Assembly (NCBI GenBank): GCA_934162535.1
Contig: CAKPJC010000006.1
Coordinates: 12,148-76,147, forward strand
Length of the DNA stretch: 64,000 nt
Direction of reading: 5' to 3'
DNA from: an uncultured Clostridia bacterium
Lineage (GTDB): Bacteria; Bacillota; Clostridia; TANB77; CAG-508
The translations under genes and the position numbers were made by a program. The first letter of the stretch is position 1; the number at the start of each line of letters is the position of its first letter. Shown in pieces: positions 26,495-46,811 of the stretch. The notes under the pieces were generated by a model. It worked only from the letters and a program-made list of their open reading frames with translations, was not told the origin of the DNA and made no database searches.

Positions 26495-27625
26495 TTAATC
26501 CATAAATTCTGTACGCCAATATTCTGGTATATTTTCATAATTATTTAATCCTGTTGCATTGTAATAGCATCCATATCCATCAGGTTCACCAATATAATCA
26601 TTTGTACTTCCATTTGGCACTCTTTTCCATAGTTTTATTGGCTCTCCTGTTAATCCTGTGCATTTGAGAAATGTACCTCTAAAAATAGTTACATTTAGGC
26701 AATTTGCAAATAAATTTTCTGGGATTCTTGTTAATGATGTACAGTATGCAAATGTTGTATAAAAAGTTGTTACATTTGGACAGTTTGCAAATAAATCTTC
26801 TGGAATACTTGTTAGTGATTCGCATCCATAAAATCCATCTGAAAAAACTGTTATTTTTTCAAAACTCTTTTCTGTTGGACTTGCTATTTTTCTTAATTTT
26901 GTACAACCTCTTAGGCATACTCTTTCTAACCCTGTTTCTCCCCATTGGATTATTTCAAGAATGTTGTCATTTCCATTGCAAATAATCCTTGTACATTTTC
27001 CTGTTATTGTGACTTTATAATCTTTGTTTTTTTCCGAGTATGTATGTGTTGGTGGATAAGCTAATGCAATTTTGCTTTTCGCACCATCATTTTGTATTAC
27101 ACTAGCATATTTTTTTTCTCCTGTATTCTTGTTTTCTGCTGTTGTTACCTTACCATCTCCCCAGTCAATAATTCTTCCTTCTTCAGTTTCCAATAATGGC
27201 AACCTCACTTCTCCAGTATCTCCTGAATTAACCAGCATTATTAATGCACTTTTGTCTACTTCTTCTCCATATGGTATCTCTCTTGTTCCTATTATTATTA
27301 TTTCTCTTTTTGTGTCTATTTCATTATCAAATACTTTATCTTCTTTTTTTAAATTTTCTAACATTTCTTCTTTTGATACTAGTGCATCATTTTTTCCTTC
27401 TAGTTCATTTTTCGTTTTTATATTTTCATTTTTTATCTTCCATAATTGCACTAATTCTTCTACATCTCCAGCTCTTGACTCGAGTTTTGCTTCATTTGCT
27501 TTTCCTATTATTCCATTGTCTCCTTTTAGCATTTGTATGCTTATTCCTGCTAATATCATTAATACTACGATTGTTACTACTAATGCTATTAGTGTTATTG
27601 CTTTTGAGCTTTTTATTCTGTTCAT
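26495..27625 (-). CDS. L1: surface-protein paralogue with pilin-like N-terminus and 27-aa LRR-type (BspA/LRR_5-like) repeats
   Basis: The start is taken at the second ATG, because GGAGG of atGGAGGaacaaaagATG gives ideal spacing. The track start is 27640. N-terminus MNRIKSSKA-ITLIALVVTIVVLMILAGISI. Repeats follow the pattern LFANCPNVTxFxxTFxxCTSLTxIPxx. The conserved C-terminus is GEPIKLWKRVPNGSTN.YIGEPDGYGCYYNATGLNNYENIPEYWR. Confidence 0.75.
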   Translation of the reverse strand: MNRIKSSKAITLIALVVTIVVLMILAGISIQMLKGDNGIIGKANEAKLESRAGDVEELVQLWKIKNENIKTKNELEGKNDALVSKEEMLENLKKEDKVFDNEIDTKREIIIIGTREIPYGEEVDKSALIMLVNSGDTGEVRLPLLETEEGRIIDWGDGKVTTAENKNTGEKKYASVIQNDGAKSKIALAYPPTHTYSEKNKDYKVTITGKCTRIICNGNDNILEIIQWGETGLERVCLRGCTKLRKIASPTEKSFEKITVFSDGFYGCESLTSIPEDLFANCPNVTTFYTTFAYCTSLTRIPENLFANCLNVTIFRGTFLKCTGLTGEPIKLWKRVPNGSTNDYIGEPDGYGCYYNATGLNNYENIPEYWRTEFMD

Positions 27626-27658
27626 CTTTTGTTCCTCCATCTCTTTTTTATTATTAGT

Positions 27659-27979: not shown

Positions 27980-29203
27980 TTATACCCCACTTAATGCTCT
28001 CCAATATTCTGGTATATTTTCATAATTATTTAATCCTGTTGCATTGTAATAGCATCCATATCCATCAGGTTCACCAATATAATTATTTGTACTTCCGTTT
28101 GGCACTCTTTTCCATAGTTTTATTGGCTCTCCTGTTAATCCTGTGCATTCGTAAAATGTACCTCTAAAATTAGTTACATTTGGACAATTTGCAAATAAGT
28201 TTTCAGGAATGCTTGTTAGTGATTTGCAATAACAAAACGTTCTTTCAAAACTTGTTGCATTTGGGCAATTCGCAAATAATGTTGATGGAATGCTTGTTAA
28301 TGATGTACAGTCTTCAAATGTTAATTCAAAAGTTGTTACATTTGGACAGTTTGCAAATAATGTTGATGGAATGCTTGTTAATGATGTACAGCCTGCAAAT
28401 GTACATGAAAAATCTGTTATTTTTTCAAAACTCTTTTCTGTTGGACTTGCTATTTTTCTTAATTTTGTACAACCATCTAGGCATACTTCTTCTAAACCTG
28501 TTTCTCCCCATTGGATTATTTCAAGAATGTTGCCATTTTCATATTCATCATTGTAAAGCTTTGTGCATTTTCCTGTTATTGTTACTATGTATTCTTTGTT
28601 TTTTTCTGGGTATGTATGTTCGGTATATTGGGAATCTATTTCTGCAATTTTATTTTTCACACTATCATTTTGAGTTACACTGGCATATTTGTTATTGTGT
28701 ATGTTTTTATCTCCTGTAGCTATTACTCCATCTCCCCAGTTTACTTTTGTGCTATCATCTATCTCTCCAGCTATCGGCAATTTCACTTCTCCAGTTTCTC
28801 CTGAATTAACTAGCATTATTAATGCTCTTTTGTCTACTTCTTCTCCATATGGTATTTCTCTTGTTCCTATTGTTATTATTTCTTTGTCTCTGTCTATTTC
28901 TTTTTCATATACTATTCCTTCTTGTATTAGTTTTTCCAACATTTCTTCTTTCGATACTAATGCTTCACTTGTTCCTGTTACTTCATTTTGTGTTTTTATC
29001 ATTTTGTTATTATTTTTCCACATTTTTACTTCTTCGTCTACATTCCCTGCTCTTGATTCTAGCTTCGCTTCATTTGATTTTGTTACTATTCCATTATCTC
29101 CTTTTAACATTTGTATGCTTATTCCTGCTAATATCATTAATACTACGATTGTTACTACTAATGCTATTAGTGTTATTGCTTTTGAGCTTTTTATTCTGTT
29201 CAT
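27980..29203 (-). CDS. L2: pilin-like N-terminus / LRR-type repeat surface-protein paralogue
   Basis: Same N- and C-termini as L1 with a different centre and one more 27-aa repeat. The track start is 29218. Confidence 0.75.
   Translation of the reverse strand: MNRIKSSKAITLIALVVTIVVLMILAGISIQMLKGDNGIVTKSNEAKLESRAGNVDEEVKMWKNNNKMIKTQNEVTGTSEALVSKEEMLEKLIQEGIVYEKEIDRDKEIITIGTREIPYGEEVDKRALIMLVNSGETGEVKLPIAGEIDDSTKVNWGDGVIATGDKNIHNNKYASVTQNDSVKNKIAEIDSQYTEHTYPEKNKEYIVTITGKCTKLYNDEYENGNILEIIQWGETGLEEVCLDGCTKLRKIASPTEKSFEKITDFSCTFAGCTSLTSIPSTLFANCPNVTTFELTFEDCTSLTSIPSTLFANCPNATSFERTFCYCKSLTSIPENLFANCPNVTNFRGTFYECTGLTGEPIKLWKRVPNGSTNNYIGEPDGYGCYYNATGLNNYENIPEYWRALSGV
28185..28430. repeat. 81-bp tandem coding repeats (LRR units) in L2
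   Basis: The sequence ggacaRtttgcaaataatgttgatggaatgcttgttaatgatgtaca... recurs with an 81-nt period. Confidence 0.7.
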
Positions 29204-29276
29204 CTTTTGTTCCTCCATCCCTTTTTTATTATTAGTATATTATCATAACACGTTTTATTTTTCAATATTTTTGTAT

Positions 29277-30323: not shown

Positions 30324-31388
30324 TTACTCTTTATCTTCAATATTTTTTCTTTGTTCTAGTTGAACTTTAGCCTTTTCTATACTATCCATAAATTTTTGTT
30401 CTAATATTTCTTTTGGTACATATTCTGTCAAATATTGTGCAACATGTATTCCACTATTATCTAATTCTAGTAATTGTGCCATCATATCACTTTTTGTCGC
30501 ACATAATATGATTGCAATTGGTGATTCTTCTCCTTCTGCTTTTTCATATTTGTCTAACCATTTCAAATATAATTCAACCTGACCTTTATATTCTGGTCTA
30601 AATTTATCTAGCTTTAATTCTATAACTACTAACCTTTTCATTTTTCTATGATAGAATAATAAATCTATATAATAATCTTCTCCATCTATTGTTATTCTTT
30701 TTTGCCTAGCTAGAAAAGCAAAATCATTTCCCATTTCTAAAATAAACTTTTCTAATTCACTTATAATTGCATTTTCTAAATCTTTCTCGCTATAAGTGTC
30801 TTTTAAATCCAAAAAGTCTAATATATATGGATCTCTAAAAAATAAATTAGTTGTCATCTTGTTTTCTTCGTTTAGCAATTTCAAATCATTTACAATAGTC
30901 TGTTCTGGCATTTTAGATATTGCTGTTCTTTCAAATAATGCTGAGCCAATTCTTTCTCTTAATGTTCTAACTCCCCAAAACTCATTTTCACACATTGTTG
31001 TGTAGAAATCTCTTTTTAAACTATCTTTAACTTGTAATAGTTCAACAAAATGTGACCAACTTAATTTTCTCGACAGTGTCGAGAATTTTTGAAAATCTGG
31101 ATAATATTCATAGACTTTTAGCATTCTAAATAAATTTGCACTACTATATCCTCGTCCATATTCAACTGTTAACCTTTGACTTAACTTTTTTATTACAGCC
31201 TTTCCATATTCAGCTCTTTCATGATTTAAGACATTTTCAGTTATATCTTTTCCTATATTCCAATATAATATTGTCATTTCTTCATTTACTTTTAATGCTA
31301 CATTTCTTTTTGCTTTTTCTATTCTATCAACTATTTTATTATATAAATCATCTATATTTATGTTATCTATGTTCTCTAATTCGTTCAT
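30324..31388 (-). CDS. DUF1016/YhcG-family PD-(D/E)xK nuclease (copy 1)
   Basis: 354 aa. It has an N-terminal helical domain (MTILYWNIGKDI, LSWSHF) and a C-terminal nuclease core IDLLFYHRKMKRLVVIELKLDKFRPEYKGQVELYLKWL. Confidence 0.85.
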   Translation of the reverse strand: MNELENIDNINIDDLYNKIVDRIEKAKRNVALKVNEEMTILYWNIGKDITENVLNHERAEYGKAVIKKLSQRLTVEYGRGYSSANLFRMLKVYEYYPDFQKFSTLSRKLSWSHFVELLQVKDSLKRDFYTTMCENEFWGVRTLRERIGSALFERTAISKMPEQTIVNDLKLLNEENKMTTNLFFRDPYILDFLDLKDTYSEKDLENAIISELEKFILEMGNDFAFLARQKRITIDGEDYYIDLLFYHRKMKRLVVIELKLDKFRPEYKGQVELYLKWLDKYEKAEGEESPIAIILCATKSDMMAQLLELDNSGIHVAQYLTEYVPKEILEQKFMDSIEKAKVQLEQRKNIEDKE

Positions 31389-32494: not shown

Positions 32495-33715
32495 TTATAC
32501 CCCACTTAATGCTCTCCAATATTCTGGTATATTTTCATAATTATTTAATCCTGTTGCATTGTAATAGCATCCATATCCATCAGGTTCACCAATATAATTA
32601 TTTGTACTTCCGTTTGGCACTCTTTTCCATAGTTTTATTGGCTCTCCTGTTAATCCTGTGCATTCGTAAAATGTACCTCTAAAATTAGTTACATTTGGAC
32701 AATTTGCAAATAATTTTTCAGGAATGCTTGTTAGTGATTTGCAATAAAAAAACGTTCTTTCAAAACTTGTTGCATTTGGGCAATTCGCAAATAATTTTTC
32801 AGGAATGCTTGTTAGTGATGTACAGTCTGCAAATGTTTCTTCAAAAGTTGTTACATTTGGACAGTTTGCAAATAAATCTTCTGGAATACTTGTTAGTTTT
32901 TCACATACAGTAAATCCATATGAAAAATCTGTTATTTTTTCAAAACTCTTTTCTGTTGGACTTGCTATTTTTCTTAATTTTGTACAATTTTCTAGGCATA
33001 CTGTTTCTAAACCTGTTTCTCCCCATTGGATTATTTCAAGAATGTTGTCATTTATTTCATCTCCATTGTAAATCTCTGTACATTTTCCTGTTATTGTTAC
33101 TATGTATTCTTTGTTTTTTTCCGAGTATGTATGTATTGGTATAGAAGCAGATGCAATTTTGCTTTTCGCACCCTCATTTTGTATTACACTAGCATATTTT
33201 TTTTCTCCTGTATTCTTGTTTTCTGCTGTTGTTACCTTACCATCTCCCCAGTCTACTTTTGTTCTATCATCTATCTCTCCAGCTATCGGCAATTCCACTT
33301 CTCCAGTTTCTCCTGAATTAACTAGCATTATTAATGCTCTTTTGTCTACTTCTTCTCCATATGGTATCTCTCTTGTTCCTATTGTTATTATTTCTTTTTT
33401 TCTGTCTATTTCTTTTTCATATACTATTCCTTCTTGTATTAGTTTTTCCAACATTTCTTCTTTCGATACTAATGCTTCACTTGTTCCTGTTACTTCATTT
33501 TGTGTTTTTATCATTTTGTTATTGTTTTTCCACATTTTTACTTCTTCGTCTACATTTCCTGCTCTTGATTCTAGCTTCGCTTCATTTGTTTTTGTTACTA
33601 TTCCATTTTCTCCTTTTAACATTTGTATGCTTATCCCTGCTAATATCAGTAACACTACGATAGTTACTACTAATGCTATTAGTGTTATTGCTTTTGAGCT
33701 TTTTATTCCGTTCAT
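32495..33715 (-). CDS. L3: pilin-like N-terminus / LRR-type repeat surface-protein paralogue
   Basis: The track start is 33730. The ends are shared with the other paralogues and the centre is distinct. Confidence 0.75.
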   Translation of the reverse strand: MNGIKSSKAITLIALVVTIVVLLILAGISIQMLKGENGIVTKTNEAKLESRAGNVDEEVKMWKNNNKMIKTQNEVTGTSEALVSKEEMLEKLIQEGIVYEKEIDRKKEIITIGTREIPYGEEVDKRALIMLVNSGETGEVELPIAGEIDDRTKVDWGDGKVTTAENKNTGEKKYASVIQNEGAKSKIASASIPIHTYSEKNKEYIVTITGKCTEIYNGDEINDNILEIIQWGETGLETVCLENCTKLRKIASPTEKSFEKITDFSYGFTVCEKLTSIPEDLFANCPNVTTFEETFADCTSLTSIPEKLFANCPNATSFERTFFYCKSLTSIPEKLFANCPNVTNFRGTFYECTGLTGEPIKLWKRVPNGSTNNYIGEPDGYGCYYNATGLNNYENIPEYWRALSGV

Positions 33716-33788
33716 CTTTTGTTCCTCCATCTCTTTTTATTATTAGTATATTATCATAATGTGTCCTATTTTTCAATATTTTTGTATT

Positions 33789-33887: not shown

Positions 33888-34922
33888 TTATTCATTTTCT
33901 TCTTCAATTATATCAATATGCAAGTTCAAATCTTCTTCTGTTGGTAACACTTCTAAAATGTCTTTTGGTAATACCTTTGATATTTCATAAGAACTAACTC
34001 CTATTGGTTTGTTAATATCTCTTAATGAGTACTCAACTGAAAACTTTGTTTTTTCTCTACATAATATAATTCCAATTGTTGGATTATCACTATCTGTTTT
34101 TATTAAATCATCAACTGCTGATAAATAAAAATTTAATTTTCCAGCATATTCTGGTTTATATTCAGTATTCTTTAATTCTACAACTATATAGCAATGTAAT
34201 TTAGTATGATAAAATAACATATCTATAAAATAATCTTTATCATCTACCGAAATTTTATACTGATTTCCAATAAAACTAAAACCATTTCCTAATTCCAGTA
34301 AAACTGTTTTTATTCTTTCGACCATTGCTTTTTCTAATTCTGTTTCTATAAAACTTTCTTTTAAATTTGACAAGTTCAAAATATATGGATCTTTCATCAT
34401 ATCTTTTGCTAGCTTGCTTTGTGGTGCTTGTAATGTATCTTGAAAATTATTAGGTTTATCCCCTAAAACTTGGCGTGTATATAAATCACTTTTGATTTGA
34501 AATGCTAAATCATCATAACTCCATCCATTTATTGAAGTCTGCTCTATATACCACTCTCTTTGTTCTTCGTTTTTTATCTTGCTAAAAATTAATATATTGT
34601 GTGACCAAGGTATCTTTTCAGAAATTTTTTTAAGGTTACTATTATTTTTACATTCTAAATAATATTTTTTCATATTAAGAAGATTTCTTTCTGAAAACCC
34701 CTTCATATTAGGAAAATTAACTTTTAGTTCTATTGATAAATTGTTTATAAAACTATTCCCATATTTAGAATTTTCGTCTATTACTTGTCCCAAATAACAA
34801 TATAACGCCAACATTCTTCTATTTGCACTTTTATAAATATCATACTGTGCATTTAATATTTCATTTTTTATGTCTTTAAATACTTCTTTAAAATCTTTTT
34901 CTAACATTTGATTTTCTTCCAT
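33888..34922 (-). CDS. DUF1016/YhcG-family PD-(D/E)xK nuclease (copy 2, divergent from copy 1)
   Basis: 344 aa with IPWSHN and IDMLFYHTKLHCYIVVELKNTEYKPEYAGKLNFYLSAV. Confidence 0.85.
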   Translation of the reverse strand: MEENQMLEKDFKEVFKDIKNEILNAQYDIYKSANRRMLALYCYLGQVIDENSKYGNSFINNLSIELKVNFPNMKGFSERNLLNMKKYYLECKNNSNLKKISEKIPWSHNILIFSKIKNEEQREWYIEQTSINGWSYDDLAFQIKSDLYTRQVLGDKPNNFQDTLQAPQSKLAKDMMKDPYILNLSNLKESFIETELEKAMVERIKTVLLELGNGFSFIGNQYKISVDDKDYFIDMLFYHTKLHCYIVVELKNTEYKPEYAGKLNFYLSAVDDLIKTDSDNPTIGIILCREKTKFSVEYSLRDINKPIGVSSYEISKVLPKDILEVLPTEEDLNLHIDIIEEENE

Positions 34923-35469: not shown

Positions 35470-36768
35470 TTATTCAAGTGATTCTCTCCAATATTCCGGT
35501 ATATTCTCATAATTATTTAATTCTGTTGCTTTGTAATAGCATCCACATCCATCAGGTTCACCAATATAATTATTTGTACTTCCGTTTTGCACTCTTTTCC
35601 ATAGTTTTATTGGCTCTCCTGTTAATCCTGTGCATTTGTAAAATGTACCTACAAAATTAGTTACATATAGGCAATTTGCAAATAATGTTGATGGAATGCT
35701 TGTTAATGATGTACAGCCTGCAAATGTTACTTCAAAAGTTGTTACATTTGGACAATTTGCAAATAATGTTGATGGAATGCTTGTTAATGATGTACAATCT
35801 ACAAATGTTGCTTCAAAAGTTGTTACATTTGGACAATTTGCAAATAATGTTGATTGAATGCTTGTTAATGATGTACATTCTGCAAATGTTCCATAAAAAG
35901 TTGTTACATTTGGACAGTTTGCAAATAAGTCTTCTGGAATACTTGTTAATGATATACTTTCATAAAATCCATATGAAAAATCTGTTATTTTTTCAAAACT
36001 CTTTTCTGTTGGACTTGCTATTTTCCTTAAATTTATGCATCCTGCTAGTTTTACATCTTCTAACCCTGTTTCTCCCCATTGAATTATTTCAAGAATGTTG
36101 TCATTTTCATATCCATTGTAAAGTTTTGTGCATTTTCCTGTTATTGTTACTTTATAATCTTTGTTTATTTCTGGGTATGTGTGTTCTATTTGTTGTGGAG
36201 GCATCTGTGCACTTTTATTTTTAGTACTATCATTTTGAACTATATTTGCATATTTTTTTCCTTCTGTATTTTTGTTTTCTGCTGTTGTTACCTTACCATC
36301 TCCCCAGTCAATAGTTATTCCTTCCTCAGTTTCTAATACTGGCAATTTCACTTCTCCAGTATCTCCTGAATTAACTAGTATTATTAATGCTCTTTTGTCT
36401 ACTTCTTCTCCATATGGTATTTCTCTTGTTCCTATTGTTATTATTTCTTTGTCTCTGTCTATTTCTTTTTCATATACTATTCCTTCTTGTATTAGTTTTT
36501 CCAACATTTCTTCTTTCGATACTAATGCTTCACTTGTTCCTGTTACTTCATTTTGTGTTTTTATCATTTTGTTATTATTTTTCCACATTTTTACTTCTTC
36601 GTCTACATTCCCTGCTCTTGATTCTAGCTTCGCTTCATTTGATTTTGTTACTATTCCATTATCTCCTTTTAACATTTGTATGCTTATTCCTGCTAATATC
36701 ATTAATACTACGATTGTTACTACTAATGCTATTAGTGTTATTGCTTTTGAGCTTTTTATTCTGTTCAT
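35470..36768 (-). CDS. L4: pilin-like N-terminus / LRR-type repeat surface-protein paralogue (largest repeat count)
   Basis: The track start is 36783. It contains SLTSIPSTLFANCPNVTTFE(V/A)TF..CT repeated. Confidence 0.75.
   Translation of the reverse strand: MNRIKSSKAITLIALVVTIVVLMILAGISIQMLKGDNGIVTKSNEAKLESRAGNVDEEVKMWKNNNKMIKTQNEVTGTSEALVSKEEMLEKLIQEGIVYEKEIDRDKEIITIGTREIPYGEEVDKRALIILVNSGDTGEVKLPVLETEEGITIDWGDGKVTTAENKNTEGKKYANIVQNDSTKNKSAQMPPQQIEHTYPEINKDYKVTITGKCTKLYNGYENDNILEIIQWGETGLEDVKLAGCINLRKIASPTEKSFEKITDFSYGFYESISLTSIPEDLFANCPNVTTFYGTFAECTSLTSIQSTLFANCPNVTTFEATFVDCTSLTSIPSTLFANCPNVTTFEVTFAGCTSLTSIPSTLFANCLYVTNFVGTFYKCTGLTGEPIKLWKRVQNGSTNNYIGEPDGCGCYYKATELNNYENIPEYWRESLE
35672..35995. 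repeat. four 81-bp tandem coding repeats in L4
   Basis: Units start at 35672, 35753, 35834 and 35915 (caatttgcaaataatgttgatgg...) and are near-identical to one another. Confidence 0.8.
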
Positions 36769-36965
36769 CTTTTGTTCCTCCATCTCTTTTTTATTATTAA
36801 CATATTATCATAATGTGTTTTATCTTTCAATATTTTTGGAACATTTTTTATCTTATGCTATTGTATTTCACGTTTTTATATACATTTTTATATAAAATAT
36901 ACTATGTCAAGAAGTAGATACGAAAAAAGACTGTAAATTATATAAACTCACAATCTTTTATATTA

Positions 36966-39696: not shown

Positions 39697-41979
39697 TTAT
39701 TCTATATAATTGTTTTTAAATAATAATTGATTTATTATGTTCATTTTTATTTTGTATATTAGTTTGTCAAAAAGTTTTTTTCCTTCTTTTTCGTATTCTT
39801 GTATTGGATTGTATCCACCATATACTCTAAGTTCTATATTGTCTTTTAAATATTCCATTGTTTCTAAGTGCTCTATCCAGTTTTCATCTATTACTTTTAA
39901 TATTCTCTGTTTCTCTATTTCATGAAATTCTGTTTTTCCTATTTCATTTTCTTTCATTTTATATCTGTTATAAATCTTTTGTTCTAGTTCTTTTAGATTT
40001 TGTTCTCTTATATTTATTTTTTCATATTCTTCCAATTTTTGTTTTACTTTGTTTGATTTTTCTGTATTTTCTTTTATTATTTGCTCACAATAATAGTCTA
40101 TAAAGTTTTTTATTGTTTTTTCAAATATTCCTTCTAATATTTGTTTTCTATCTCCATATATTATTCTTCTTTGTATGTTTAGCGTTTTGTCATAGTTTAC
40201 CATTCTTTTTCTTGATGTATAGTTTTTGTTTTCTGCTTCTTTTTGTGCCTTTTCTATCTCTTTTTTTATTGTTCTTGATTTTATTTCTTTTTTGCTTTTT
40301 ATTTCTCTGTTTTTTCCATATATTTTTATCAATTCATCTTCTAAACTAATATAAAATATACTTTCTCCTATTTGTCCTTGTCTGCCACTTCTCCCTCTTA
40401 GCTGTTCATCAATTCTCCTTGATTCATGTTTTTCTGTTCCTATTACTTTTAATCCTCCAGCTTTTATGACTTCATCTTGGTTTATTATTATGTTTGTTCC
40501 TCTTCCTGCCATGTTTGTGGCTATTGTTACTTTTCCAATTTGACCTGCTTGTTCCACTATTTTGGCTTCTTCTTTATCATTTTTTGCATTTAATATATTG
40601 TGTTTTATGTTTTCTTTTTTTAGTAATTTACTTAATTCTTCTGATTTTTCTATTGATATTGTTCCAATTAATACTGGTTGTCCCTTTTCTTGGCTCTTTT
40701 TTATTTCTTTTATTATTGCTTCTATTTTTTCTTGTTCTGCTCCATAAACTTTGTCTTTTCTGTCTTTCCTTTTGCTTTTTAGATTTCTTGGTATTTCTAC
40801 TACATCTAGTCCATATATTTCATTTAATTCTTTTTCTGCTGTTTTTGCTGTTCCTGTCATTCCTGATAATTTTTTATACATTTTGAAGTAGTTTTGTGTT
40901 GTTATACTTGCTACCATTGTTGAACTGTCATCTATTTTTAGTCCTTCTTTTGCCTCTATTGCTTCATGTAGTCCTTTTGTATACCTTTTTCCTTTCATTA
41001 TTCTTCCTGTGTATTTATCTATTATTTGTACATTTTTATCTTTTATTATATAGTCAACATCTTTTTCTAGTATGTTGTTCGCACATAGTGCTTGTTTTAC
41101 AAGATTTATTGTTTCTATGTTTTCTTTTTCATAAAAGTTTTTTAGATTATATTCTTTTTCTGCTTTTTTTATTCCTTTTTGTGTTAGTACTACTGTTTTG
41201 TATGTTTCATCAACTACATAATCATATTTTTCGTTTTCTTCTAATTGTTTTTTGTCTTTTGGATTTTCTTTTATTATCCTGATCCCTTTTAAGCTTTTTA
41301 CGAATTTGTCGGCTTTTATATATGGTTTTTCATCATTTTTTGCTTTTCTATTTGATATTATCATTGGTGTTTGCGCTTCATCTATTAATATACTATCTGC
41401 TTCGTCTATTATTGCATAATTTAGTTCTCTTTGCACTATTTCTTCTTTATTTCTTGCTATATTGTCTCTTAGATAATCAAACCCAAATTCAGTGTTTGTT
41501 CCATATGTTACTTCTTTTTGGTATTGTTTTTTTCTTTCTTCTGTTGTCATGTCTTGGTCTATTATTCCTACTGTTATTCCTAAGTATTCTAATATTTTTC
41601 CTACTTCATTGTAGTCTCTCTGGGCTAAGTATTCATTTGTCGTTATTATGTGTACTCCTTTTCCTTCTAGTGCATTTAGGTATGCAGGAAGAACAGCTGT
41701 TAATGTCTTTCCTTCTCCTGCTTTTATTTCAGCTATTCTTCCTTGATTTAGTATGTATCCTCCTTCTATTTGCACATCATATAGAGTTTTTCCTGTTATT
41801 ATTTTTGTTCCTCTTTTGGCTATTGCATACGCTTCTGGTAATATTTCTTCTAGCTCTATTTTTTCTTGTTGTATCTTTTTCTTTAGTTCTTCTGTCTTTT
41901 CTTTTATTTGTTGTTCATTGTATTGGCTTATTTCTTTTTCATGTTTTTTTATTTTTTCTAGTATTTTTTTGTTTTTCAT
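39697..41979 (-). CDS. secA: SecA-family preprotein translocase ATPase, short form (SecA2-like: no canonical N-terminal FGS.N.R motif, no C-terminal Zn-finger tail)
   Basis: 760 aa with IKAGEGKTLTAVLPAYLNAL, IIDEADSILIDEAQTPMIIS and ATNMAGRGTNI. It ends in ...NQLLFKNNYIE without a CxCxSGxKxKxC tail. Confidence 0.88.
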   Translation of the reverse strand: MKNKKILEKIKKHEKEISQYNEQQIKEKTEELKKKIQQEKIELEEILPEAYAIAKRGTKIITGKTLYDVQIEGGYILNQGRIAEIKAGEGKTLTAVLPAYLNALEGKGVHIITTNEYLAQRDYNEVGKILEYLGITVGIIDQDMTTEERKKQYQKEVTYGTNTEFGFDYLRDNIARNKEEIVQRELNYAIIDEADSILIDEAQTPMIISNRKAKNDEKPYIKADKFVKSLKGIRIIKENPKDKKQLEENEKYDYVVDETYKTVVLTQKGIKKAEKEYNLKNFYEKENIETINLVKQALCANNILEKDVDYIIKDKNVQIIDKYTGRIMKGKRYTKGLHEAIEAKEGLKIDDSSTMVASITTQNYFKMYKKLSGMTGTAKTAEKELNEIYGLDVVEIPRNLKSKRKDRKDKVYGAEQEKIEAIIKEIKKSQEKGQPVLIGTISIEKSEELSKLLKKENIKHNILNAKNDKEEAKIVEQAGQIGKVTIATNMAGRGTNIIINQDEVIKAGGLKVIGTEKHESRRIDEQLRGRSGRQGQIGESIFYISLEDELIKIYGKNREIKSKKEIKSRTIKKEIEKAQKEAENKNYTSRKRMVNYDKTLNIQRRIIYGDRKQILEGIFEKTIKNFIDYYCEQIIKENTEKSNKVKQKLEEYEKINIREQNLKELEQKIYNRYKMKENEIGKTEFHEIEKQRILKVIDENWIEHLETMEYLKDNIELRVYGGYNPIQEYEKEGKKLFDKLIYKIKMNIINQLLFKNNYIE

Positions 41980-42006: not shown

Positions 42007-42633
42007 TTACTTTTCCATATTTATTATTCTTTGTACATATTCTTCTAGTGTGTTTGTGTGTTTTACATCATTGCCTTTGTTTATTTCTTTTGGTTGTTCT
42101 GCTAGTCTTAGTCCATTGAAGTATTTGTCTGGTATGTTTTTGTATTCTTCTCTTTTTACTAGCTCTCTATCATCTTTTATGAATTTCATATCTTTTATTT
42201 CATATAAATTGTTTAGTCTTAATGATGTTAGTATTCCATTTGCAAATAGGTTCATATGGTAATCTGTTATTATGTTGTAGTATTCTATTTTTTCATGTAT
42301 TACTTCTCTTTCAGTTATTCTTGTTGTCGTTCCATCTTCTAAAAATACTCTTGTTCCTAGTGGTGTGTCTTGTTCGTTCATTCCATATAAAAATTTTTGT
42401 TTATCTATATTGAATACTCTATGGTCTCCGATTGTTTTTAGTTCTCTTCCATCTTCAAATTTTATATTGTTGTATTCATTTGCTTCTTGTACTTTTTTTA
42501 TCCATAGTGGTTTTGCTGTTGAGAAACATCCATTGTCAAAATCCCATACTAGTAGCTGGTCTTCATATGTTATGTCTTCTATATTTTTGGTTGTGTGATT
42601 TGCTAGTGTGATTTTAGTTCCTTTGGCTAGACA
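42007..42633. repeat. 3' homology block shared by H1 and H2 (Hint domain plus tail), copy 1
   Basis: Collinear with 43886-44512. The last 110 or so codons are identical at protein level. Confidence 0.85.
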
Positions 42634-43788
42634 AAGGTAACCCCATACATCTATTGTTGTATTGTCTTGTATTTCAACTATTTCTCCATTCTTTTTTTGT
42701 ACATTAAAACTTATTGTTAAATTTAACTCATTAGTAATAGTAGTAATATTATTTTTATCACGCCAATGTTCTGTTATTAACTCTCCACTTTTTGTTAATT
42801 TCGCAGCTGCTCCTGCAAAAGAAAATCTTATTGTTCCATTCTCATCTTCTTCTGGCACAATTCCAGTAAAAAATTGAATTTCTATCTTTGTTGCCTTTAC
42901 ATTCCCCATATATTCATATTTATATATTTGAAATTCTCCTTTTGTTTTACTCTCATCTACAAGTGTTTTACCATTTAGTGGATTTTTAATTCCTAGCATA
43001 TTTGCATATAGTGTTGTATTCTTACTTACTTTATCTCCTGCATTTGCTTCTTTTGTACATTCTTCGTCATAGTACCAGCCATCAAATACCTGTGCTGTTT
43101 CTTTTGGCTCTTCTGTAGGGTATATTACTGTACTACTTTTTATCTCTTTATATTGATTTCCATTTACCATAAATGCAATTTTATATTCACAAGCTTTCCA
43201 TTTAGGATATAATGTTATATCTGCTGTTAATTTTGCTCCTTCAACAGCTTCACTAGTTAGTTCTGTATCATAATACCAACCAGCAAAATCCATTCCATCT
43301 GTTACAGGTGGTGTTCTTGGGAATTCTACTTGTGTTGCTTTTATTGTTTTATATATTTGGTCTTTTCCCATAAATGATATTGTAAATATTGTTGTCATTA
43401 CTAATATCCCTATTTTGCCTAACCATTCCTTTTCTTTTGCTGTTGTTGTTCCATCATTATATCTTAATTCATTATCTTGTATAACAAATTTTTCAGCATC
43501 TTCATCGCTTATTCCTTTTATTATTTTCTTTATTTCTTCTGGCGTTTCAGCATATATCCTTACTTCTTCTCCTGCATAACTTTGCTCTTCTTTTGTTGTA
43601 ATGTATTCATTTAATTCTGTTTGATAGTCTCTTATTTTTACACTGTATTTGGCATATTTTGTGTCATTTAGTATTCCATCTTTTCCTTTTATTGCTTTTA
43701 ATGATATACTTGCTAGTATTAATAATACTATTATAGTTATTATTAATGCTATTAGCGTTATTCCTTTATTATTTTTTGTTTTTCTCAT
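42007..43788 (-). CDS. H1: secreted protein with pilin-like N-terminus, two Listeria-Bacteroides-type repeats, variable centre and C-terminal Hint (Hint_2-like) domain
   Basis: 593 aa. N-terminus MRKTKNNKG-ITLIALIITIIVLLILASISL. Repeats FAGWYYDTELT...ITLYPKW and FDGWYYDEECT...TLYA. The Hint domain starts at C-LAKGTKITLANHTTKNIEDI and ends near YHMNLFANGILTS. An 80-aa tail follows. Confidence 0.8.
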   Translation of the reverse strand: MRKTKNNKGITLIALIITIIVLLILASISLKAIKGKDGILNDTKYAKYSVKIRDYQTELNEYITTKEEQSYAGEEVRIYAETPEEIKKIIKGISDEDAEKFVIQDNELRYNDGTTTAKEKEWLGKIGILVMTTIFTISFMGKDQIYKTIKATQVEFPRTPPVTDGMDFAGWYYDTELTSEAVEGAKLTADITLYPKWKACEYKIAFMVNGNQYKEIKSSTVIYPTEEPKETAQVFDGWYYDEECTKEANAGDKVSKNTTLYANMLGIKNPLNGKTLVDESKTKGEFQIYKYEYMGNVKATKIEIQFFTGIVPEEDENGTIRFSFAGAAAKLTKSGELITEHWRDKNNITTITNELNLTISFNVQKKNGEIVEIQDNTTIDVWGYLCLAKGTKITLANHTTKNIEDITYEDQLLVWDFDNGCFSTAKPLWIKKVQEANEYNNIKFEDGRELKTIGDHRVFNIDKQKFLYGMNEQDTPLGTRVFLEDGTTTRITEREVIHEKIEYYNIITDYHMNLFANGILTSLRLNNLYEIKDMKFIKDDRELVKREEYKNIPDKYFNGLRLAEQPKEINKGNDVKHTNTLEEYVQRIINMEK

Positions 43789-43840
43789 ATTTTTTTCCTC
43801 TTTTGATTTTATATTTATATAATATCAAATTAATTTGATT
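43198..43840. repeat. 5' homology block shared by H1 and H2 (leader, first 197 codons, RBS region), copy 1
   Basis: Collinear with 45188-45830. The proteins differ at 2 of 197 residues. Confidence 0.85.
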
Positions 43841-43885
43841 GTTTCTAATATCTTTTTATTATAAAATTCTCTTTCACAATGTTTT

Positions 43886-44512
43886 TTACTTTTCCATATT
43901 TATTATTCTTTGTACATATTCTTCTAGTGTATTTGTGTGTTTTACATCATTGCCTTTGTTTATTTCTTTTGGTTGTTCTGCTAGTCTTAGTCCATTGAAG
44001 TATTTGTCTGGTATGTTTTTGTATTCTTCTCTTTTTACTAGCTCTCTATCATCTTTTATGAATTTCATATCTTTTATTTCATATAAATTGTTTAGTCTTA
44101 ATGATGTTAGTATTCCATTTGCAAATAGGTTCATATGGTAATCTGTTATTATATTGTAGTATTCTATTTTTTCATGTATTACTTCTCTTTCAGTTATTCT
44201 CGTTGTCGCTCCATCTTCTAAAAACACTTTTGTTCCTAGTGGTGTGTCTTGTTCGTTCATTGTATATGTGAATCTTTGTGAATCCATATTGAATATTCTA
44301 TGGTCTACTACTGTTTTTAGTTCTCTTCCATCTTCAAATTTTATATAGTTGTATTCGTTTGCTTCTTGTACTTTTTTTATCCATAATGGTTTTGCTGTTG
44401 AGAAACATCCATTGTCAAAGTCCCATACTAGTAGTTGGTCTTCATATGTTATGTCTTCTATGTTTTTGGTTGTATAATTTGCTAGAGTTATTTTTGTTCC
44501 TTTGGCTAAACA
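43886..44512. repeat. 3' homology block, copy 2
   Basis: See 42007-42633. Confidence 0.85.
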
Positions 44513-45778
44513 ATATTGGTGTGTCCATACAAAAAAGTAATCAGTATCAGTAGTTCCATCTTCAAATGTACATTCAATTACAAAACGTTCCGTCATTATT
44601 GCTGGAGTATCTGGAATAAGCATTATGTTTCCATCATTTGCAAATTCGCATTTGGTTTTATATTTAGTACTTTCTTCCCATGCTTTTCCCGATAAAGTTG
44701 TATTCTCCTTAATAGTAACATTTGTTATTTTGCTACTTCCTGTATACTGATAAATTTTTTCTTTAGTAGTAGCTCCCCATAATTCACCTCCAATTTTTAC
44801 ATATGAAGGATACTTATCTATTACTTCAAAAAAAACACTTTCTGAGTATTTATTTTTTAATTCTATATATTCATCTTGATTGTTAACTTTATGCCATATT
44901 GCATCTCCATATTTTTCTCCAAGTACACCTCCTCCCGTTTCCCAATAAAAGTATGCTCCATCTAACTTATTGGTTATATAACTACTCCAATTAGAATAAA
45001 CCTTTATACTTCGTGTTATCGTATCTCCTTCTTTTACTTGATTAGTACAAGCCTCATCATAATACCAACCAGTAAATTTCCTATTTTCTTTTGTTGGTTC
45101 ATTATCTGGGAATTTTATAGTATTTCCTTTTACCTTTGTAAATACTTGATTTCCAACCATATATGTTGCTGTATTTACTGCAACTGCCCATTTAGGATAT
45201 AATGTTATATCTGCTGTTAATTTTTCTCCTTCAACAGCTTCACTAGTTAGTTCTGTATCATAATACCAACCAGCAAAATCCATTCCATCTGTTACAGGTG
45301 GTGTTCTTGGGAATTCTACTTGTGTTGCTTTTATTGTTTTATATATTTGGTCTTTTCCCATAAATGATATTGTAAATATTGTTGTCATTACTAATATCCC
45401 TATTTTGCCTAACCATTCCTTTTCTTTTGCTGTTGTTGTTCCATCATTATATCTTAATTCATTATCTTGTATAACAAATTTTTCAGCATCTTCATCGCTT
45501 ATTCCTTTTATTATTTTCTTTATTTCTTCTGGCGTTTCAGCATATATCCTTACTTCTTCTCCTGCATAACTTTGCTCTTCTTTTGTTGTAATGTATTCAT
45601 TTAATTCTGTTTGATAGTCTCTTATTTTTACACTGTATTTGGCATATTTTGTGTCATTCAGTATTCCATCTTTTCCTTTTATTGCTTTTAATGATACACT
45701 TGCTAATATTAATAATACTATTATTGTAATTATTAAAGCTATTAGTGTTATTCCTTTATTATTTTTTGTTTTTCTCAT
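43886..45778 (-). CDS. H2: paralogue of H1 with a different central cassette
   Basis: The start is taken at MRKTKNNKG (45778, RBS aggag). The track start is 45820. The 5' and 3' parts are near-identical to H1, while the centre (44513-45187) is unrelated to the H1 centre (42634-43197). Confidence 0.8.
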   Translation of the reverse strand: MRKTKNNKGITLIALIITIIVLLILASVSLKAIKGKDGILNDTKYAKYSVKIRDYQTELNEYITTKEEQSYAGEEVRIYAETPEEIKKIIKGISDEDAEKFVIQDNELRYNDGTTTAKEKEWLGKIGILVMTTIFTISFMGKDQIYKTIKATQVEFPRTPPVTDGMDFAGWYYDTELTSEAVEGEKLTADITLYPKWAVAVNTATYMVGNQVFTKVKGNTIKFPDNEPTKENRKFTGWYYDEACTNQVKEGDTITRSIKVYSNWSSYITNKLDGAYFYWETGGGVLGEKYGDAIWHKVNNQDEYIELKNKYSESVFFEVIDKYPSYVKIGGELWGATTKEKIYQYTGSSKITNVTIKENTTLSGKAWEESTKYKTKCEFANDGNIMLIPDTPAIMTERFVIECTFEDGTTDTDYFFVWTHQYCLAKGTKITLANYTTKNIEDITYEDQLLVWDFDNGCFSTAKPLWIKKVQEANEYNYIKFEDGRELKTVVDHRIFNMDSQRFTYTMNEQDTPLGTKVFLEDGATTRITEREVIHEKIEYYNIITDYHMNLFANGILTSLRLNNLYEIKDMKFIKDDRELVKREEYKNIPDKYFNGLRLAEQPKEINKGNDVKHTNTLEEYVQRIINMEK

Positions 45779-45830
45779 ATTTTTTTCTCCTCTTTTGATT
45801 TTATATTTATATAATATCAATAAATTTTAT
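45188..45830. repeat. 5' homology block, copy 2
   Basis: See 43198-43840. Confidence 0.85.
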
Positions 45831-45857: not shown

Positions 45858-46811
45858 TTAAGGTTTTAATGCTGTAATTGGTATAACATAAATTCCATCA
45901 GGTCTTTTTACAACTGCATCATATAGTCCACATATTACACACATAAATTTAGGCTTTACCTCAGCTAATTCATAAAATCTTTTTAGACTAGCAACTGCTT
46001 CTTCTTCTTTATTAGCTCCTAGCTTTATTTCTATTGCTCCATATTCTCCATCAGCTATTTCTATTATTGCATCAACCTCTATTCCTGTATCATTCTCCCT
46101 GTAATGATATAGCTTAGCTCCTATACTCTCTGCATATATTTTTAAATCTCTTTCACATAAAGCTTCAAAATATAATCCCATTGTTTCTAAGTCATTTATT
46201 AGTTTTTCAGGTGTTATATTCAAAATAGCACACCCTAATGACGGGTCTACAAAATGTCTTTTTGGGTTTTTGCCAACATTCATTCTTGAACGTATTTTAT
46301 ACATAAATGAATTTTGGTTTTCAATTAAATGCAATCTATCTAGCACATCCAGGTAATCTGTGACTGTATTTCTGCTTATTGTTACATCTTCTTCTGTAAT
46401 GTTATCGTCTATCTCTTTCATTAATACATTATTACTAGAAATAGTACTCTCATTTCTAGCAAGAGATCTTAATAGCATCTCCATCTTTTGTCTATCCCTT
46501 TTTACTCCATCTATATCTATGATGTCTTTATCTAATACTGCCTCAATATAACTTTTAGCTATTTTCATTGCACCAGCTATACTAATATCGATTGTTTCTG
46601 GCCATCCACCTCTTACTATTAATTCAGCTATTCTTTGTAGTTCAGTCTTTCTTACTAGCTGGTTTTTTACTTTATTTTGAAATAATTCTTGTAAAGAAAC
46701 TTCTCCACCATTTTGGACCTTCTATACTAATTGCTCCAAATATTTCTAAATTTTCCTCTATTGATTTATCTATTAATCTCGGCATATATCCGTTTTTAGT
46801 TAATTTCATAA
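45858..46811 (-). pseudogene. AAA ATPase with DUF4143 domain, with the internal Walker region deleted
   Basis: The C-terminal 236-aa ORF (45858-46568) is the DUF4143 part. Upstream, my own translation from the ATG near 46809 gives MKLTKNGYMPRLIDKSIEENLEIFGAISIEGPKWW.. The typical N-terminus breaks exactly at the expected GPKWCGKT P-loop and then hits a stop. Confidence 0.6.

Follow-up and report, generated by a model that had tools for sequence, protein, structure and literature searches.

A Hint-fold module with a conserved tail behind exchangeable cassettes in two tandem genes of an uncultured gut Clostridia bacterium

Two tandem genes with common ends

Analyzing a 64,000-nucleotide stretch of DNA from an uncultured, low-GC gut bacterium of the Clostridia (GenBank assembly GCA_934162535.1, contig CAKPJC010000006.1, positions 12,148 to 76,147; the window), we found two neighboring genes, H1 and H2, whose products end in the same C-terminal module, a Hint domain followed by a conserved tail. 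Coordinates below are window positions, and both genes lie on the minus strand, as do almost all genes of the window, whose GC content is about 28%. H1 (42007..43788) encodes 593 residues arranged as a leader, a helical stalk, two Flg_new repeats, a beta-sandwich cassette, the Hint domain, and the tail, as read from its open reading frame (ORF), Pfam matches, and a full-length AlphaFold2 model. H2 (43886..45778) encodes 630 residues with the layout of H1 and another, longer cassette, according to its ORF, its alignment with H1, and Pfam. The two products are paralogous proteins, presumably located at the cell surface.

The ends of the two genes are nearly the same. Over their first 197 residues the only substitutions are I28V and A185E, with 8 differences in 591 nucleotides, and their last 208 codons differ at 12 amino acids and 31 nucleotides; the final 107 residues are the same in both, and the last 267 nucleotides contain a single difference. 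These values bear out the initial annotation, made from the sequence alone, which had counted two differences in the first 197 codons, described a shared end of 208 codons with an identical terminal part, and given the centres as 188 codons in H1 and 225 in H2. It had also called the centres unrelated, which holds for their last 115 to 150 residues, where alignment and tblastn detect no similarity between H1 and H2, but not for the first 65 to 75 residues of each centre, a second Flg_new repeat that is about 35% identical between the two proteins (tblastn E 9e-12). Judging from the sequence, two direct repeats of about 600 nucleotides with 95 to 99% identity, within 4 kb, cannot have arisen by chance. 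No third copy of the C-terminal module was found by a tblastn-type comparison within the window.

The likeness extends beyond the coding regions. The stretch preceding the ATG of H2, at 45778, is the one that precedes the start of H1, 88% identical over 57 nucleotides and including a GAGG ribosome-binding site (H1 copy 43789..43838, H2 copy 45779-45830, minus strand, from repeat comparison); it also holds a weak promoter-like site. Promoter-like and terminator-like sites around H1 and H2 are no more frequent than in shuffled sequence, and we therefore make no claim about the transcription unit beyond the gap of 27 nucleotides between H1 and the next gene, secA.

The full-length model of H1 has a mean predicted local distance difference test score (pLDDT) of 79.4. 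Residues 1 to 34 (43687..43788 in H1 and 45677-45778 in H2, minus strand) form a putative class III, or prepilin-like, signal-anchor recognized from Pfam and the model, with a basic N-region, Gly9, and a long hydrophobic helix that spans residues 8 to 34 in the model; position +5 is Ala, where Glu is usual. Pfam N_methyl scores 17.8 and 17.4 bits on the two leaders, under its cut-off of 21.2, and a relative (P0121) exceeds the cut-off. Four proteins with BspA-type leucine-rich repeats (BspA-LRR) encoded elsewhere in the window carry a similar leader, and it therefore looks like a general surface-display signal of this organism.

In the model the leader is followed by a second helix (residues 39-69) and a small alpha/beta region (residues 83-126). 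The first Flg_new repeat (43192..43386, residues 135-199; 45182-45376 in H2; minus strand) lies in the near-identical 5' block and is supported by Pfam, NCBIfam, and the model strands; the second (42985..43185, residues 202-268; 44975-45175 in H2; minus strand) is supported by Pfam, with its best stretch at residues 202-262, and by tblastn. Flg_new, the Listeria-Bacteroides repeat (PF09479), scores 53.6 and 49.1 bits against a cut-off of 27, with two stretches in each protein. The variable cassette then occupies residues 269-385 of H1 (42634..42984, minus strand), where it is all-beta with model strands between residues 274 and 381, and residues 269-422 of H2 by alignment (44513..44974, minus strand). 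A Foldseek search with the full-length H1 model was dominated by Hint matches and gave no identification of the cassette or of the N-terminal head; two matches to the BcpA pilin were set aside (probability <0.5, root-mean-square deviation >20).

The C-terminal module and its family

The shared module is 208 residues long, a Hint part of about 137 residues and a tail of 71 residues after ...GILTS. In H1 the Hint domain occupies residues 386-522 (42223..42633, minus strand; CLAKGTKITLAN to HMNLFANGILTS), as delimited by AlphaFold2 and Foldseek, a PDB profile match, and invariant alignment columns; in H2 it occupies residues 423-559 (44102..44512, minus strand), by alignment with H1 and by sub-threshold Pfam matches to PT-HINT, Hint, and Hom_end_hint. 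It begins with the predicted nucleophile, Cys386 in H1 (codon 42631..42633, minus strand), which is an invariant alignment column, and Cys423 in H2 (codon 44510..44512, minus strand), assigned by alignment, so that the predicted scissile bonds are Leu385-Cys386 and Tyr422-Cys423. The tail (residues 523-593, 42010..42222 in H1; 43889-44101 in H2, with identical protein; minus strand) reads LRLNNLYEIKDMKFIKDDR...GLRLAEQ... and contains the invariant residues N527, R561, E564, and Q565. What had been described as an 80-residue Lys/Glu-rich tail is, at 71 residues, conserved and predicted to be structured, not of low complexity.

An AlphaFold2 model of the last 218 residues, built on an alignment of 53 relatives, has a pLDDT of 91.8 and a predicted template-modeling score of 0.89. 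Over roughly the first 40 tail residues, as far as position 190 of this model, the pLDDT is near 95; it then drops to between 70 and 86 for the rest. Searching PDB with the module model, Foldseek returned 66 matches at E<=0.001, and all 50 of those listed are Hint-fold proteins, about 45 of them inteins. The best is Tetrahymena BIL2 (E 3e-11, target template-modeling [TM] score 0.81); the bacterial intein-like (BIL) domain of C. thermocellum (2LWY) follows with E 1.5e-9 and target TM 0.84, and Hedgehog (1AT0) ranks 18th with 12% identity. The top matches (BIL2, the C. thermocellum BIL domain, inteins, and Hedgehog) each have a probability of 1.00. The family profile also matches BIL2 by sequence over the whole domain (E 0.005). 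The initial annotation had proposed a Hint domain, to be given up if neither profiles nor structure prediction found the fold; with the model matching Hint folds and the profile finding BIL2, the fold, a horseshoe-like all-beta one, is established for the module as modeled. The further label of Hint_2 type is not supported, as Pfam gives no Hint_2 match to the module.

Curated models see the module faintly. Pfam PT-HINT, Hint, Hom_end_hint, and Intein_splicing and NCBIfam intein_Nterm match the right stretch, all below their cut-offs: PT-HINT (PF07591) reaches 18.9 bits (E 0.0019) against 27.7 in H2 and has no match in H1, Hint (PF01079) reaches 12.1 and 14.1 bits against 29.7, and intein_Nterm reaches 21.2 against 24.5. 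PHROGs has no match to the module, and NCBIfam has no family for it. The PT-HINT match in H2, together with the tandem arrangement of genes sharing their ends, as in toxin cassettes, could indicate polymorphic toxins in which a pretoxin-HINT domain releases the 71-residue tail as the toxin. We consider this very improbable, because the match is under the cut-off and confined to H2, the Asn for C-terminal cleavage is absent, the tail is conserved from Clostridia to phages, and the next gene at 27 nucleotides is secA rather than an immunity-like gene.

The module belongs to a very large set of proteins. A search with its 208 residues found 250 relatives, every one of them unnamed or annotated as hypothetical, and in the alignment of 53 relatives conservation extends over the tail as it does over the Hint part. 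When 1.84 billion representatives were searched with a profile, 4811 proteins matched at E<=0.001, 2984 of them at E<=1e-10 and 900 at E<=1e-30, counted as cluster representatives at 50% identity; some of the weaker matches may come from other Hint families. The 150 best matches carry the module at the end of the protein, whose length ranges from 255 to 1926 residues, and in 124 of 129 representatives the protein ends no more than 45 residues from the GLRLxEQ motif. A search with the tail alone returned seven short fragments only and was uninformative on whether the tail occurs without a Hint domain. Literature searches on Hint or BIL domains with phage, tail fibre, or pilin yielded only inteins in phage genes, polymorphic toxins, and reviews, and the family is undescribed in what they found. 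Thus, judged by profile and sequence searches, this is a large family, present in bacteria, phages, and giant viruses, that Pfam, NCBIfam, and PHROGs do not capture above cut-off.

Conserved residues were scored in 85 representatives at <=50% identity and are given in H1 numbering. The invariant positions are C386, W415, F417, D418, H456, R457, N505, N513, T521, S522, N527, R561, E564, and Q565. H456 (module position H71) is the block-B His and aligns with the BIL2 His; Thr452, four residues before it, is nearly invariant, whereas the TxxH spacing of inteins is three. D418, the Asp of a WDFD motif, is a family-specific invariant. Cys1 is invariant in both the 53- and the 85-sequence alignments, is present in all divergent loci examined, and persists even where the first strands are followed by an inserted Lys-rich loop, while the residue before it is unconserved. 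The nucleophilic Cys of the initial annotation is therefore as constant as the block-B His, and its remark that the terminal His-Asn is missing is also correct: Thr-Ser (T521-S522 in H1) stands at that place in all 85 representatives. Directly behind Thr-Ser, 115 of 134 representatives have Cys, but H1 (523), H2 (560), and their closest relatives have Leu. Most family members thus possess an intein-like "+1" Cys without the Asn that splicing through it would require; this Cys might relay a thioester or act as a redox lock. The ...ILTSCR... of the family may resemble ...LASCYA at the end of the Hedgehog Hint domain, a likeness that we do not use as evidence.

Constancy of this kind bears on whether the module is catalytic at all. 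It might instead be a Hint-fold domain with a structural, binding, or anchoring role, with Cys386 engaged, for example, in a disulfide, and the sub-threshold scores of the curated catalytic-family models, the unusual block-B spacing, and the Lys/Glu-rich tail would suit such a domain. We think this improbable, since thousands of highly divergent proteins all keep Cys1 and the block-B His but vary in the residue before the Cys, the module is terminal and directly behind the passenger, and H1 and H2 have no partner Cys after Thr-Ser.

The passengers are diverse. They include Flg_new, fn3, BspA-type LRR (LRR_5), He_PIG, Mtd_N, collagen, YadA_head, Big_2, Ig_J, and EGF-like domains, behind N-termini that comprise several types of pilin-like leader, Tat-like signals, and phage tail-fibre N-termini. 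The placement of the variable part upstream and of a constant tail downstream, which the initial annotation had noticed in H1 and H2, holds across the family. Bacterial hosts are uncultured Clostridia (64 to 73% identical and surely of the clade from which the window comes), Bacilli, Erysipelotrichaceae, Alphaproteobacteria, Gastranaerophilaceae, and others. Relatives of the module also occur on more than 80 viral contigs, among them a T4-like phage and a 378-kb huge-phage contig, and a giant-virus protein in BFVD, named "Hint domain-containing protein" in UniProt, is 46% identical, tail included. In the T4-like phage (L007 10001-11065) the neighbors of the module gene serve replication (gp32, gp59, the gp44 clamp loader, and DNA polymerase), and in the huge-phage contig (L005 10001-11089) it lies beside an intein-containing gene and an ART-PolyVal gene. 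Because these two genes are outside any tail-gene block, not all phage members are obvious fibres.

Cassette exchange and the surroundings of the locus

Related genomes carry one to three tandem copies of the Hint gene, three being found in locus L008. Within one genome the C-terminal modules are 91 to 94% identical; between genomes, modules are 64 to 85% identical, N-terminal parts 35 to 47%, and centres 10 to 38%. In H1-type orthologues from other samples, the centre is 68 to 100% identical, compared to 87 to 99% for the N-terminal part and 97 to 100% for the module. Two strain loci, L164 and L165, have only the H1-type gene, between a DUF4143 ATPase gene and secA. Another, L166, has an H2-type gene with a third cassette, whose boundaries are sharp and fall just past the second Flg_new repeat and exactly at the Cys codon. 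The cassette diversity among homologues that the initial annotation had asked about is therefore borne out, both by the divergence of centres between genomes and by this third cassette.

Substitution rates by the Nei-Gojobori method, for H1 against its orthologue in L164, follow the same boundaries. The cassette has a synonymous rate (dS) of 0.275, a nonsynonymous rate (dN) of 0.211, and a ratio (omega) of 0.77, compared to 0.088, 0.009, and 0.11 for the Hint domain and 0.026, 0, and 0 for the tail; dN is about 0.01 in the flanks of the cassette, and the tail also has dN = 0 between H1 and H2. Since dS and dN are both raised in the cassette, recombinational import from diverged alleles explains it better than local positive selection alone. 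Judging from the genomes compared, swapped central cassettes are a general strain-level property of the locus, which would show a gut bacterium varying a surface-exposed cassette between strictly conserved recombination arms.

Frameshifts disrupt the H2-type orthologue in three or more further strains or species, at about 7690-7760 in L001-L003 and L012, about 8000-8040 in L004, and about 7000-7020 in L166. One frameshifted form, a 3' ORF of 200 residues (P0030), recurs in at least 23 contigs, and many of the short, module-only matches of the 208-residue search are probably such 3' fragments. Programmed frameshifting and homopolymer phase variation were considered and rejected, as no long homopolymer or slippery motif was found at the frameshift sites, and we read the frameshifts as plain inactivating indels.

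Downstream, secA (39697..41979, minus strand, 760 residues, identified by Pfam) starts 27 nucleotides past the stop codon of H1. The linkage to secA recurs in L001, L004, L164, and L165 and in eight further Clostridia loci (L008, L009, L011-L014, L026, and L028), where it is kept although SecA is just 52 to 66% identical. A gene with a pilin-like leader and a Hint module lies directly upstream of secA in every close Clostridia locus examined. The arrangement is reminiscent of slpA-secA2 of Clostridioides difficile.

The wider surroundings are housekeeping genes (ClpC-like, RNase J-like, FtsK, DivIVA, SepF, MutL, and SecA), and on its gene content the locus is not a prophage. That the module is an intein or another selfish insertion, or that H1 and H2 are remnants of prophage tail-fibre genes, would agree with the intein-like fold and with the many relatives in phages. 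We give this hardly any credence in view of the missing C-extein, terminal Asn, and endonuclease domain, the housekeeping neighborhood, the synteny of the locus across genomes in which SecA has diverged so far, and the leader, which is common to other surface proteins in the window.

Upstream of H2, a gene at 45858-46568 (minus strand) encodes just the DUF4143 part, 236 residues, of an AAA_14/DUF4143 ATPase. This gene is whole in strain L164 (426 residues) and split in L166, and it seems to be decaying beside the variable locus. A second multigene family lies elsewhere in the window, the four BspA-LRR paralogues of 381 to 437 residues (26495-27640, 27980-29218, 32495-33730, and 35470-36783, minus strand). 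All four share a prepilin-like leader (KAITLIALVVTIVVL...) and are nearly the same in their N- and C-terminal parts, and they differ in how many BspA-type LRR units they contain. Interleaved with them are two genes for nucleases of the YhcG/DUF1016 PDDEXK type (30324-31388 and 33888-34922). The BspA-LRR family looks like another surface-protein array, one that varies by repeat number.

Proposed reaction of the module and comparison with known Hint systems

From the Hint fold, the conserved residues, and the chemistry of inteins, Hedgehog, and BIL domains (PMC8616854, PMC7765530, PMC2362128), the reaction can be outlined as follows. After folding, Cys386 of H1 or Cys423 of H2, aided by the block-B His456, would attack the preceding peptide bond in an N-to-S acyl shift, giving a thioester that joins the C-terminus of the passenger to the module. 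Only this N-terminal junction would be breakable; splicing and C-terminal cleavage should be impossible, because Thr-Ser replaces His-Asn and no nucleophile follows in H1 and H2. The thioester would be resolved by water or a small nucleophile, which would make the module a single-use, self-removing pro-domain, a helper of folding or assembly. The N-terminal helix would continue to hold the mature passenger, which would present the variable cassette at its free end. Release of the passenger, one of the two outcomes that the initial annotation had expected, is not what such a cleavage would bring about: with a prepilin-like anchor at the N-terminus, it would strip the module from an anchored passenger and free nothing into the medium. 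Exchange of the cassette probably proceeds through recombination in the conserved flanks, and the duplication provides a single cell with two variants.

The acyl shift, the cleavage, and the thioester fate are the most likely course of events given this analogy, and we assign about an even chance to the complete scheme in which the thioester is hydrolyzed and the module removes itself. A universal nucleophile such as water is favored because the module occurs both on phage fibres, assembled in the cytoplasm, and on exported proteins. Hydrolysis is also favored because BIL domains are documented to cleave themselves at the N-terminal junction (PMC7765530).

Several observations weigh against this scheme. 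The cleavage itself is deduced from conserved residues, the block-B Thr-to-His spacing is one residue above that of intein TxxH, and the curated Hint, intein, and PT-HINT models all stay under their cut-offs on H1 and H2. The prepilin identity of the leader is weak, given its N_methyl scores and the Ala at +5. The frameshifted orthologues in several strains show that the protein is dispensable. The tail, with its invariant Arg, Glu, Gln, and Asn, is very strongly constrained, and the family has nine invariant polar or aromatic residues that do not belong to the canonical intein set; this constraint seems to exceed the needs of a disposable pro-domain, and a role in binding an acceptor would fit. 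Finally, the closest solved relative, BIL2, conjugates and does not hydrolyze (PMC8616854).

The last points lead to a different outcome from the same fold and the same first step, which we regard as a serious though clearly less probable alternative to self-removal. The thioester could be passed to a specific acceptor chosen by the tail, in a single-turnover ligation like those of Hedgehog and BUBL; the tail would then correspond to the sterol- or adduct-recognition region of Hog, and the acceptor might be a lipid, a cell-wall group, or a Lys or the N-terminal amine of another subunit. The tail begins at the C-terminus of the Hint domain, which in inteins adjoins Cys1; its invariant N, R, E, and Q, its dN of 0, and its predicted structured state are further points in favor. 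The invariant Asp of the WDFD motif is specific to this family, and the Cys after Thr-Ser in 115 of 134 representatives makes a second thioester relay conceivable in most members. The order of passenger, Cys, Hint, and C-terminal region of about 70 residues is that of Hog (PMC2362128), and BIL2, the top relative in both structure and sequence, forms isopeptide bonds without ATP (PMC8616854). On the other hand, no acceptor, helper gene, or conserved neighbor was found except secA, and one common acceptor is hard to name for a family that sits on cytoplasmic phage proteins as well as on exported ones. In addition, H1 and H2 lack the Cys after Thr-Ser, the residue preceding Cys1 is unconserved, and Hedgehog is only 18th by fold, with 12% identity. 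The most novel version of transfer, for which our expectation is somewhat lower again, is that Hint domain and tail are a prokaryotic and viral counterpart of Hog, a single-use, ATP-independent ligase whose Hint domain forms a C-terminal thioester on whatever passenger precedes it and whose tail picks an envelope group or a residue of a neighboring subunit. If this is true, covalent bonds would fix or cross-link adhesins and phage fibres with no need of sortase, and the C-terminal modification of the Hedgehog type would gain a widespread bacterial and phage antecedent.

Either outcome would matter beyond this locus. Hint domains are known as inteins, Hedgehog autoprocessing domains, and a few bacterial intein-like types, and their other natural roles are poorly understood; the locus exposes a very large family with a Hog-like layout, capping pilin-like gut surface proteins and fibres of phages and giant viruses. 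A module that cleaves would be a general maturation device for fibres and adhesins and would supply protein engineering with a ready-made tag that removes itself. A module that transfers would provide a new route of covalent surface attachment, with a bearing on the origin of Hedgehog processing.

Among known systems, inteins have a C-terminal (His-)Asn and a Cys, Ser, or Thr of the C-extein, within a conserved host protein, whereas H1 has Thr521-Ser522-Leu523 followed by the tail. Pretoxin-HINT domains (PF07591, PMC3482391), like the module of H1 and H2, belong to surface or secreted proteins that diversify by cassette exchange. In polymorphic toxins, however, the variable toxin is downstream and freed by C-terminal cleavage, while in H1 and H2 the variable part is upstream, the constant part is downstream, and there is no immunity gene. 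The Peptidase S74 chaperone domains of phage tail spikes and fibres, of which eukaryotic MyRF is a relative (PMC8326128), are also C-terminal and cleave themselves off after assembly; the likeness to the module is a functional analogy only, as they use a Ser-Lys dyad with unrelated fold and chemistry, and no sequence or fold match to them was seen.

Closer are the BIL domains (Amitai et al. 2003 and Dassa et al. 2004, as reviewed in PMC7765530 and PMC9185962), which share with the family the Hint fold, the initial Cys, a location in variable regions of non-conserved secreted bacterial proteins, and an expected activity of self-cleavage rather than splicing. A-type BILs end in His-Asn (PMC7765530), unlike the invariant Thr-Ser of the family; B-type BILs, compared here by description only, carry the N-terminal motifs of inteins and lack His-Asn at the C-terminal junction, a motif logic that the family fits, with Cys after Thr-Ser in most representatives but Leu in H1 and H2. 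The family differs from BILs in its obligatory conserved tail of about 70 residues, its nearly always terminal position, its abundance in phages, and the absence of Pfam matches to Hint_2 or BIL-related models. BIL2 of Tetrahymena BUBL (6Y75 and 6TMM), the closest solved relative by profile and fold at about 20% identity, serves a single time, as a platform on which the C-terminus of the domain upstream of it is activated (PMC8616854). Unlike the family, BIL2 keeps a terminal Asn (the crystallized mutant is C1A-N143A), is flanked by two ubiquitin-like domains, and lacks a conserved tail.

Hedgehog/Hog (1AT0) has the same layout as the family, a variable secreted passenger, Cys, Hint domain, and C-terminal region of about 70 residues (PMC2362128), and only its N-terminal junction reacts, as we propose here. 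It is eukaryotic, however, its Gly-Cys-Phe junction is absent from the family, which falls outside PF01079 by sequence, and there is no evidence in the family of a sterol or other adduct. The initial annotation had seen in H1 and H2 a logic different from that of polymorphic toxins. As far as the layout is concerned this stands, but the logic is not new in kind, since Hedgehog/Hog, BIL, and BUBL proteins precede it (PMC2362128, PMC7765530, PMC8616854). Thus, what distinguishes the family among Hint systems is its obligatory conserved tail, invariant Thr-Ser, terminal position, and spread in phages and pilin-like proteins.

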